Source of the DNA: Myxococcota bacterium
GTDB lineage: Bacteria; Myxococcota_A; Bradymonadia; Bradymonadales; GCA-2716585
Direction: 5' to 3'
Length of the DNA stretch: 12,742 nucleotides
NCBI GenBank assembly: GCA_963169075.1
Contig: CAUJGC010000551.1
Coordinates: 1 to 12,742 of the forward strand
The stretch's first letter is position 1; every line of letters starts with the position of its first letter. The notes under the pieces are model-generated. The model was not told the DNA's origin. It was given only the letters and a program-made list of their open reading frames with translations, and made no database searches. This document shows positions 2,831 through 3,885 of this stretch, one piece after another. Both the position numbers and the translations under genes were made by a program.

Positions 2831-2942
2831 GCGCGCTCCTCCGCTGGGTGGGTAGACGCCCCCCCAGACCAGCCGCACGCTGCCGGAGGAGCTTATGAAC
2901 ACTCTGAGTATATGGGTCGTCGCGCCGCGCTGCGCAAGGGGT

Positions 2943-3048
2943 CATGCGTCGCATGGAGCGGATTGGACGAACGCCCCTCCCTCGCATTACATTCATCGCG
3001 CGCTCCCCGAGCGCGTCATGCCCCCCGCGCGAGGTGAAGCGACGCATG
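2943..3048 (+). promoter_or_regulatory. Cluster of palindromic/repeated motifs in the K+ channel leader: the 13-bp palindrome CATGCGTCGCATG (2943-2955), the hairpin CGCGCTC-ccc-GAGCGCG (2999-3015), and the half-site GCGACGCATG recurring at 3039-3048 overlapping the start codon
   Basis: Seen directly. The palindrome half-site CGACGCATG occurs three times in 106 bp (twice within the palindrome, one per strand, and once at the ATG). This is candidate operator or 5'-UTR structure; no known regulator is assigned. Confidence 0.3.
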
Positions 3049-3885
3049 TCCGAGCGAGGCCCCATCGAGGATCCACGTTACGCCGAAGGCGGGTGGCGCA
3101 AGCGCCTCCACGCGATCATCTACGAGGCCGACACCCCCGCCGGGAAGGCGTTTGATGTCGTCCTCCTCGTCCTGATCGTCCTGAGCGTGACGCTGGTCGC
3201 GATGGAGACGGTGCCGGGGCTCCCCGAATGGATGATCCAGCTCCTCTGGATCAGCGAGTGGGTGGTGACAGCCCTCTTCACCGTCGAGCTGGCGCTGCGC
3301 ATGCTGGTGATCAAGCGCCCGCTGCGCTACATCCTCAGCTTCTATGGGCTCATCGACCTCTTCTCCATCCTCCCGACCTGGATCGCCTTCTTTGTACCCG
3401 GGGTGCAGGCGCTCTTGACGATCCGCGCGCTGCGGCTCTTCCGGATCTTCCGCATCCTCAAGATGGCGAAGATGCTCGATGAGATGAGCGAGCTTCGCCA
3501 CGCCTTCTTCGCCTCCCGCGCCAAGATGGGCGTCTTCCTCTACGGGGTGGCGATCCTCGTCGTGATCCTGAGCGCGCTGATGTACCTCGTCGAGGGCGGC
3601 CCTGAGTCTGACTTCGAGAGCATCCCCCAGAGCATGTACTGGACCGTCGTCACCATGACCACCGTCGGCTATGGCGACATCACCCCCGTCACCCCGCTGG
3701 GGAAGCTCCTCGCGGTCGTCATGATGCTCCTCGGCTACAGCATCATCGTGGTCCCCACCGGGATCCTCAGCGTCGAGGTCTCCCGCGCTCAGAAGCAGAC
3801 CAACACCCAGCACTGCGACCAGTGCGGCCTGGATGAGCACGTCGATGAGGCCAGGTTCTGCCACCGCTGCGGCGCGAAGCTCTGA
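3046..3885 (+). CDS. Voltage-gated (Kv/KvAP-like) 6TM potassium channel with C-terminal zinc-ribbon tail
   Basis: - Six hydrophobic segments are present.
- S4 has Arg at every third position (IRALRLFRIFRILKMAK).
- The pore helix plus selectivity filter reads MYWTVVTMTTVGYGDITP.
- The C-terminal tail CDQCG...(11 aa)...CHRCG is a CxxC/CxxC motif.
- Start set at 3046 (MSERGPIED...) rather than the ORF-track start at 2944: GC3 jumps from ~74% to ~90% at 3046, and GAGGTG lies 11 nt upstream. Confidence 0.85.
   Translation: MSERGPIEDPRYAEGGWRKRLHAIIYEADTPAGKAFDVVLLVLIVLSVTLVAMETVPGLPEWMIQLLWISEWVVTALFTVELALRMLVIKRPLRYILSFYGLIDLFSILPTWIAFFVPGVQALLTIRALRLFRIFRILKMAKMLDEMSELRHAFFASRAKMGVFLYGVAILVVILSALMYLVEGGPESDFESIPQSMYWTVVTMTTVGYGDITPVTPLGKLLAVVMMLLGYSIIVVPTGILSVEVSRAQKQTNTQHCDQCGLDEHVDEARFCHRCGAKL

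Follow-up and report, generated by a model that had tools for sequence, protein, structure and literature searches.

The 12,742-nucleotide contig CAUJGC010000551.1 of a Myxococcota bacterium (assembly GCA_963169075.1), referred to in full as the window, carries a gene for a predicted voltage-gated potassium (Kv) channel whose cytoplasmic C-terminus ends in a putative zinc ribbon, and which lies divergent to a gene for a major vault protein (MVP) homologue. We found that this gene is an ordinary member of a very large Kv subfamily that is known to the databases and functionally unstudied. Based on the analyses described below, we consider it likely that the family consists of Shaker-like channels with an integral Cys4 ribbon as a family feature, that the ribbon is probably a tethered structural module, and that the pairing with the MVP gene is incidental.

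A Shaker-like membrane core

The list of open reading frames (ORFs) starts the channel gene at an ATG at position 2944. We set the start at position 3046 (Table 1) because the public gene calls, which match the resulting 279-aa product exactly, the alignment of homologues from M1 and a GAGGTG site upstream agree on it; three independent samples hold the identical product. Pfam assigned residues 34-252 to Ion_trans (PF00520; 1.3e-35, 123.2 bits versus a cut-off of 25) and also reported Ion_trans_2 (2.4e-17). Invariant and conserved positions were read from an alignment of 37 channel homologues of about 50-55% identity. The invariant columns of the voltage sensor are E71, F78 and E81 in S2 and D104 in S3; we take the first three to share the spacing of E226-F233-E236 in Kv1.2, and D104 to correspond to D259. 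In S4, the four arginines (R127, R130, R133 and R136) are invariant, with at least 90% conservation at K139. An N-terminal helix with the pattern W-R-x-R-L-H...E-A-D-T-P-x-G is conserved too. T206, V207, G208, G210 and D211 of the selectivity filter are invariant as well, and a TVG[YF]GD filter is present in all of the 120 best protein matches to the window channel, the set on which all protein homologue counts are based. The Ion_trans match, the S4 ladder and the TVGYGD filter bear out the first-pass annotation of the window, which had called the gene a Kv-type channel.

A family profile built from the alignment was searched against the PDB, where Kv2.1 ranked best among the 60 chains listed (3.8e-41), followed by Kv1.3 and Kv4.2, with KvAP much weaker (1.6e-26); the alignment to Kv2.1 takes in the P237-T-G239 hinge stretch. 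The AlphaFold2 (AF2) model, a single-chain monomer built with the alignment, has a mean pLDDT of 86.4, six transmembrane helices, a 14-residue S4-S5 helix (residues 143-156) and an S6 helix that extends to residue 250. Its best PDB matches in a Foldseek search were Kv2.1, Shaker and Kv4.2, at about 29% identity. The eukaryotic Shab, Shaker and Shal channels (Kv2.1, Kv1.2/1.3 and Kv4.2) are the best matches to the membrane core in both sequence and fold, sharing with it the S4 charge ladder, the S2/S3 counter-charges, the K+ filter and, judging from the monomer model, a long S4-S5 helix. However, Kv1-Kv4 have an N-terminal T1 domain, whereas no match to a T1 or BTB domain was found in the window channel, which has only about 30 residues before S1. 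The S6 hinge is P-T-G in the window protein and P-x-P in the eukaryotic channels, and the cytoplasmic module of the window protein is a 26-residue C-terminal zinc ribbon, before which the eukaryotic Kv alignments stop. KvAP of Aeropyrum pernix (1orq, 6uwm) is likewise a minimal prokaryotic Kv channel without T1 and of similar size, but it is more distant from the window family than the eukaryotic channels are, and its alignment ends at profile position 237-239, before the ribbon. Judged from its sequence, the window gene encodes a putative Shaker-like, six-helix, K+-selective channel with a voltage sensor, belonging to a very large prokaryotic subfamily.

The putative zinc ribbon is a feature of the family

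In the window channel, the tail consists of C257-DQ-C260, 11 residues and C272-HR-C275, with the protein ending at L279, in frame with S6. This agrees with the first-pass annotation, in which a CxxC-X11-CxxC zinc ribbon was appended to the C-terminus. C257, C260, H265, C272, C275 and G276 are invariant in the alignment, and T254, A269 and L279 are at least 90% conserved; with six invariant positions, the tail is as constrained as the membrane core. All 120 protein homologues end in a CxxC...CxxC tail. A genome scan with one genome per species yielded more than 582 related channel loci, the best 80 of which were analysed. Of the 78 readable copies among them, 77 have the ribbon, the lone exception being cut by a contig end, and the spacing between the two CxxC motifs is exactly 11 residues in 76 of these 77. 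The ribbon had been described as not being a standard Kv accessory domain, which is correct with respect to characterised channels, but within this very large prokaryotic subfamily the architecture is the rule. The putative ribbon is thus a family-defining feature and not a peculiarity of the window gene.

A domain search of the tail returned generic zinc-ribbon families: at E ≤ 0.01, Zn_ribbon_3 (PF13248) matched 17, Zn_Ribbon_1 (PF13240) 13 and DZR (PF12773) 12 of the 37 aligned family members. These short bacterial zinc ribbons have the same two CxxC knuckles and the signature A-x-F-C-x-x-C-G-x-x-L, to which the channel-linked ribbon adds an invariant His and a T-Q lead-in; unlike them, it always stands at the extreme C-terminus, after S6. 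The AF2 monomer places short strand or bridge elements at residues 252-253, 265-266, 271 and 278 of the tail, with pLDDT values of 80-88. Reading the tails by eye, we found a tether of variable length: the first Cys follows the PTG hinge at a distance of about 15 residues in some homologues and more than 30 in others. Among the 60 PDB chains listed, the alignments end at profile position 237-250 of 275 and thus stop short of the tail. We found no literature on it when looking for zinc ribbons together with prokaryotic Kv or potassium channels and for PA1496, a Pseudomonas aeruginosa gene discussed below; the zinc ribbons mentioned in two of the papers found belong to other proteins.

We also searched a profile of the ribbon alone against 1.84 billion representative proteins and obtained 1119 matches at E ≤ 0.001. 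Those inspected were channels or channel fragments, channels with two tandem ribbons, and non-channel proteins with tandem His-bearing ribbons. Because the same His-bearing ribbon occurs in tandem arrays of non-channel proteins, the module appears to be generic and portable. The two-ribbon channels are P0259, P0272 and P0405, the filter of P0272 being degenerate (TSGTYGMG). The S6-plus-ribbon end is also found in P0357, a K+ channel of 195 aa, and in P0346, a channel that differs in its voltage-sensor sequence. Such variants could reflect real domain shuffling or assembly chimeras.

Distribution of the family

The family occurs in more than ten bacterial phyla, with hosts in Bacteroidota, Planctomycetota, Verrucomicrobiota, Acidobacteriota, Nitrospirota, Gemmatimonadota, Desulfobacterota, Gammaproteobacteria, Spirochaetota, Calditrichota and Methylomirabilota, and in archaea (Poseidoniaceae and Methanosarcinales). 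Relatives are also found on plasmid records of several phyla; phage records gave only partial, distant K+ channel matches. Clustering of the ORFs around the 78 channel loci revealed no neighbour conserved across phyla. The recurrent neighbours came mainly from loci of Flavobacteriia and other Bacteroidota and look like inherited gene order; the channel is normally a stand-alone gene.

Ribbon-bearing genes annotated as "ion transporter" are present in Klebsiella pneumoniae (WP_002910080.1), between oppF and the cardiolipin synthase gene cls, and in P. aeruginosa (WP_003083179.1), two genes from muiA. From the gene order on the PAO1 map, we take the latter to be PA1496, "putative K+ channel". 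Under that name PA1496 appeared only in expression lists in the searchable literature, and we found no functional study of either gene. Both proteins belong to the same length class (275-283 aa), are 39-44% identical over residues 13-279, and share the six-helix core, the TVG[YF]GD filter, the PTG hinge and the CxxC-x4-H-x6-CxxC-G tail; they differ from the window gene in their hosts and gene neighbourhoods. Two plasmid-labelled records contain these genes. One from K. pneumoniae (L093, NZ_CP132641.1) has the chromosomal run oppC, oppF, ion transporter, cls, and one from P. aeruginosa (L094, NZ_CP133752.1) has pyk, a urea transporter gene, the ion transporter, muiA and a sulfate-binding protein gene. 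These records may be mis-assigned chromosomal segments or chromosome-derived replicons.

Origin of the channel gene and its codon bias

We compared the locus with contigs of the same organism (L001-L003), with a relative whose channel is 79% identical (L004), and with the next-closest MVP loci (L086 and L087; MVP identity 73%). L001-L003 and L004 keep the MVP gene divergent upstream of the channel, and the Endo_dU gene, a 430-aa gene and MaoC downstream. In L086 and L087 the order is MaoC, 427-aa gene, Endo_dU, MVP, with a gap of 268 bp between Endo_dU and MVP and no channel between them. This absence would fit a history in which the channel was inserted by horizontal transfer and its C-ending codons are the unameliorated signature of a donor or of an inverted orientation, a scenario we regard as possible but doubtful. 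It gains from the lack of any named Myxococcota in both the top 120 proteins and the top 80 genome loci, from the identity of only 44-57% in matches beyond P0002, and from the relatives on plasmid records. Since outgroups differ in synteny, however, the comparison has no direction, and an insertion in one lineage is indistinguishable from a deletion in the other.

The codon bias itself is real. The channel has C at 0.57 and G at 0.36 of its third codon positions, in contrast to the other + strand genes with G at 0.61-0.73, confirming the earlier remark that the channel prefers C-ending and its + strand neighbours G-ending codons. Amino-acid composition was rejected as the source of the C excess because the bias persists at 4-fold degenerate sites (96 C, 49 G). 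From 3907 to 12742, the + strand is strongly G-rich at 4-fold sites whatever the orientation of the gene, with a + strand GC skew of +0.40 to +0.91. In coding sense, the counts at these sites are 5 G and 111 C for Endo_dU (- strand), 16 G and 272 C for RtcR (- strand), and 195 G and 24 C for RtcA (+ strand). Because the asymmetry is independent of orientation, neighbours on opposite strands use almost disjoint sets of synonymous codons. On this side of the channel, spacers that measure 100 bp or more have skews of +0.39 to +0.61, compared with -0.06 for the 215-bp region between the MVP and channel genes.

The exception to this asymmetry is a patch of about 2.3 kb (approximately 1600-3900) that comprises the channel, the 215-bp region and the 5' third to half of the MVP gene. 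The 4-fold-site skew of the channel is -0.32 versus +0.40 to +0.91 in the flanking genes, which would suit a transferred gene, but the patch extends into a single intact ORF: the + strand skew of the MVP ORF is -0.39 in its 5' third, about zero in the middle and +0.55 in its 3' third. L004 has the same patch with the same borders, although the 4-fold sites at conserved residues of the window and L004 channels are saturated (identity 0.48 observed versus 0.46 expected), so that a trace of past history should have faded. The 5' part of MVP is likewise neutral in L086, where the channel is missing. At the same position downstream of MVP, the coding skew of a Metallophos gene in L086 is opposite to that in L004. 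The codon bias belongs to the DNA context and not to the gene, and this context is a mosaic in the clade. Since L004 keeps the patch despite synonymous saturation, the C-ending bias is not a clean scar of recent transfer, and we rejected it as decisive evidence for such an event. We likewise rejected transcription-coupled skew from a divergent promoter: the 5' coding strand of MVP is G-rich and the coding strand of the channel C-rich, and hence the same DNA strand is affected. Of the earlier proposal that the codons imply a different history or orientation, the argument from codons is ambiguous, as they are a property of the patch, while the absence of the channel from the syntenic site in L086 and L087 does suggest a different history.

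Extreme strand asymmetry is a feature of the window from 3907 to 12742 and also of L004, L086 and L090, the relatives showing a mosaic of patches. Two other Myxococcota MVP loci, including that of Polyangium spumosum, have only weak skew.

Predicted role of the ribbon

Our working model follows the architecture of the channel. The protein would tetramerise to a K+ pore, and the S4 charges would move with the membrane voltage. This movement would act via the S4-S5 helix and open the S6 gate at the P-T-G hinge, the polarity of opening (depolarisation or hyperpolarisation) not being readable from sequence, and K+ would then pass the TVGYGD filter. Four zinc-stabilised knuckles, one per subunit, would hang below the gate on flexible tethers. 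Our best guess is that they most likely form a small structural module for assembly or stability, or for docking of a cytoplasmic partner. A rigid gating ring seems less likely than such a tethered module because the tether length is not conserved. Zinc binding by the ribbon and its roles in assembly and gating are predictions only.

Some observations weigh against the favoured reading, namely a Shaker-like family with an integral structural ribbon and an incidental MVP neighbour. On Pfam Zn_Ribbon_1 the window ribbon scores 16.8 bits, short of the curated cut-off of 25, although a sub-threshold score is to be expected for so short a domain. L004 keeps both the MVP-channel arrangement and a 26-nt intergenic block (see below). 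Finally, a plain Cys4 structural site would need neither His265, which is invariant, nor the conserved T-Q that leads into the first Cys; the two are a hint of something more specific, for example sensing of pH or redox state, a second metal site or a defined contact.

Because His265 and T-Q are not explained by a plain structural site, a sensor role (redox, zinc or pH) stays alive. The ribbon would then be a regulatory sensor: oxidation of the four Cys, or loss or gain of zinc, would change how the channel gates and link K+ flux to stress from oxidants, electrophiles or metals, with the invariant His contributing to a labile or inter-subunit site. We consider this unlikely. The position of the ribbon would suit it, since with S6 modelled to residue 250 and the first Cys at 257 the ribbon would begin just below the gate. 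Cys4-Zn redox switches (Hsp33, RsrA) and glutathione-gated K+ efflux (KefC) provide precedents. Kv channels themselves offer the nearest one: in Kv4, thiol reagents that act on the cysteines of the Zn site at the T1-T1 interface cause state-dependent inhibition (PMC2266617). The inter-subunit Zn2+ site of the T1 domain in Kv2, Kv3 and Kv4 is a cysteine/histidine zinc site in the cytoplasmic part of a Kv channel where thiols influence gating (PMC2266617). It is N-terminal, however, lies at the subunit interface in a BTB-like domain of about 100 residues and is not homologous to a zinc ribbon, which makes the likeness a functional analogy only. Against a sensor speaks the mostly structural nature of Cys4 ribbons in this Pfam class, as does the presence of tandem arrays of the His-bearing ribbon in unrelated proteins; the wide variation in linker length argues against tight mechanical coupling. 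We judge it improbable that the Cys4-plus-His ribbon acts throughout a pan-prokaryotic Kv subfamily as a conserved assembly switch or intracellular sensor (redox, zinc, pH) that controls the S6 gate.

The MVP gene is an incidental neighbour

The divergent gene next to the channel encodes an MVP homologue with Pfam scores of 79.9 bits for MVP_shoulder (cut-off 25), 30.9 for Vault_3 (cut-off 28.8) and 20.7 for Vault_4, the last below its cut-off. It has 527 homologues; the named ones are mostly from Myxococcota/Polyangia, and several are annotated "major vault protein". The two start codons are separated by 215 bp, as the first-pass annotation had estimated for a control region common to both genes. 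A scan of positions 2700-4000 returned no sigma-70-like promoter and no terminator match, a result that is uninformative in Myxococcota sequence of 68% GC. When this region is aligned between the window and L004, the 26-nt block stands out as the one long stretch of identity among otherwise diverged sequence; L086 lacks it. Its proximity to the MVP ATG and its TATACT make it look like the promoter region of MVP itself, and it is probably an MVP promoter or operator.

We asked how often the two genes occur together, scoring proximity within 10 kb at the 80 channel loci from other organisms. None of these has MVP, Endo_dU, the 430-aa gene or MaoC nearby. Conversely, none of four MVP locus types outside the lineage of the window and L004 has the channel, three further MVP loci having unrelated neighbours and no channel. 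Since the related lineage represented by L086 and L087 has Endo_dU and MVP adjacent, the pairing is a lineage-specific juxtaposition, and the position of the channel next to MVP is incidental. The idea of a meaningful MVP-channel pairing, which the earlier annotation had raised with a survey of their co-occurrence in mind, did not hold up. That the two genes form a functional, co-regulated divergent pair, for example with a vault-like particle linked to K+ flux, is very unlikely, even though the arrangement is maintained in both the same-species contig L001 and L004 and the conserved block lies between the genes. Besides the missing co-occurrence, the block adjoins MVP and looks like its own promoter, and a preprint on bacterial MVP homologues never uses the words channel, operon or neighbour (10.1101/872010). 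Co-regulation confined to the narrow lineage of the window and L004 is conceivable, because L004 keeps both the arrangement and the 26-nt block.

In L004, the MVP gene (3757-6619, - strand) is broken into ORFs of 651 and 150 aa. Its match to the window MVP fades beyond about residue 480 and picks up again in different frames, which reflects either a pseudogene or frameshift errors in the assembly.

The notion that the ribbon is an annotation or assembly artefact, either a frameshifted fragment or a fused small ORF, is refuted by the identical product in three independent samples, by the presence of the ribbon in 120 of 120 protein and 77 of 78 genomic homologues, and by a tail that is in frame and continuous with S6.

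Other genes in the window

The 430-aa protein is syntenic between Endo_dU and MaoC in all three related lineages (L004, 8586-9875; L086, 3772-5055). Further right, at 6757-10005, the gene for RtcR, a sigma-54 activator on the - strand, is divergent from that for RtcA, an RNA 3'-phosphate cyclase on the + strand that starts at about 8962. There is no rtcB between RtcR and RtcA; the gap of about 590 bp holds a 111-aa ORF. This ORF, probably a small gene that lacks annotation, has an ordinary composition, and, as in the genuine genes here, only its third codon position is skewed (+0.65). In another frame it is overlapped by the long version of the RtcR ORF (to 8826), which extends too far: RtcR really starts at 8370. 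The contig ends in a low-complexity tract that probably caused the assembly break.

Table 1. Features of the window, with positions counted from its first nucleotide.
Feature	Position	Strand	Basis or remarks
MVP homologue, 921 aa, divergent neighbour	65..2830	-	MVP_shoulder 2e-22, Vault_3 3.1e-07, Vault_4 4.8e-04
Divergent intergenic region, 215 bp, between MVP and channel start codons	2831..3045	.	MVP start codon 2828-2830 (-), channel ATG 3046
26-nt block CCCATATACTCAGAGTGTTCATAAGC (MVP direction), probable MVP promoter or operator	2891..2916	-	Identical in L004; ~60-85 nt upstream of MVP ATG; TATACT, -10-like hexamer
Shine-Dalgarno-like GAGGTG, 8 nt upstream of channel ATG	3032..3037	+	Read from sequence
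Kv-type K+ channel CDS (predicted), 279 aa plus stop	3046..3885	+	Ion_trans 1.3e-35; exact product in public gene calls
Voltage-sensor domain S1-S4, residues 31-140	3136..3465	+	AF2 helices 31-54, 61-88, 99-116, 124-140
S4 gating charges R127, R130, R133, R136, K139, K142	3424..3471	+	Basic residue at every third position
K+ selectivity filter T-V-G-Y-G-D, residues 206-211	3661..3678	+	Sequence
S6 hinge P237-T-G239	3754..3762	+	P237 and G239 invariant among the 37 aligned homologues; aligns with eukaryotic P-x-P region
C-terminal zinc ribbon (putative), residues 254-279	3805..3882	+	T-Q-H-C257-xx-C260-x4-H265-x3-A269-x-F-C272-xx-C275-G276-xx-L279
Endo_dU (PF01949) gene, convergent with channel	3907..4473	-	Pfam 4.3e-56; stop codons 21 bp apart
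430-aa protein	4579-5871	+	No Pfam match; 71% identity to L004 counterpart
111-aa ORF (MATQLGELRIEAIDGNTLHGWFESLND...), probable small gene	8426-8761	-	Between RtcR and RtcA; upstream of and co-directional with RtcR
Allantoinase-type amidohydrolase, purine catabolism	10046-11410		First gene of a purine-catabolism pair
Allantoicase-like ORF	Starts near 11442, within 10046-12450		After the amidohydrolase; identified by eye from translation
G-rich (GGN)n low-complexity tract, contig end	12451-12742		GC 0.87, skew +0.61

Significance

At the level of the window, the gene carries little weight, being another example of a channel that is very common, and its link with the vault gene is accidental. 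The interest, a modest one, lies in the family, a prokaryotic Kv subfamily of compact proteins (about 275 aa) that stand closer in their membrane core to animal Kv1, Kv2 and Kv4 than KvAP does. It is widespread and present in tractable pathogens, and it has an invariant zinc-ribbon tail that has apparently not been studied. If the sensor or switch reading were true, bacteria and archaea of many phyla, P. aeruginosa and K. pneumoniae among them, would share an undescribed stress-gated, voltage-dependent K+ channel. The family could serve as a simple model of a minimal cytoplasmic module acting on a Kv gate, and might also shed light on the part that voltage-gated K+ channels play in bacteria.

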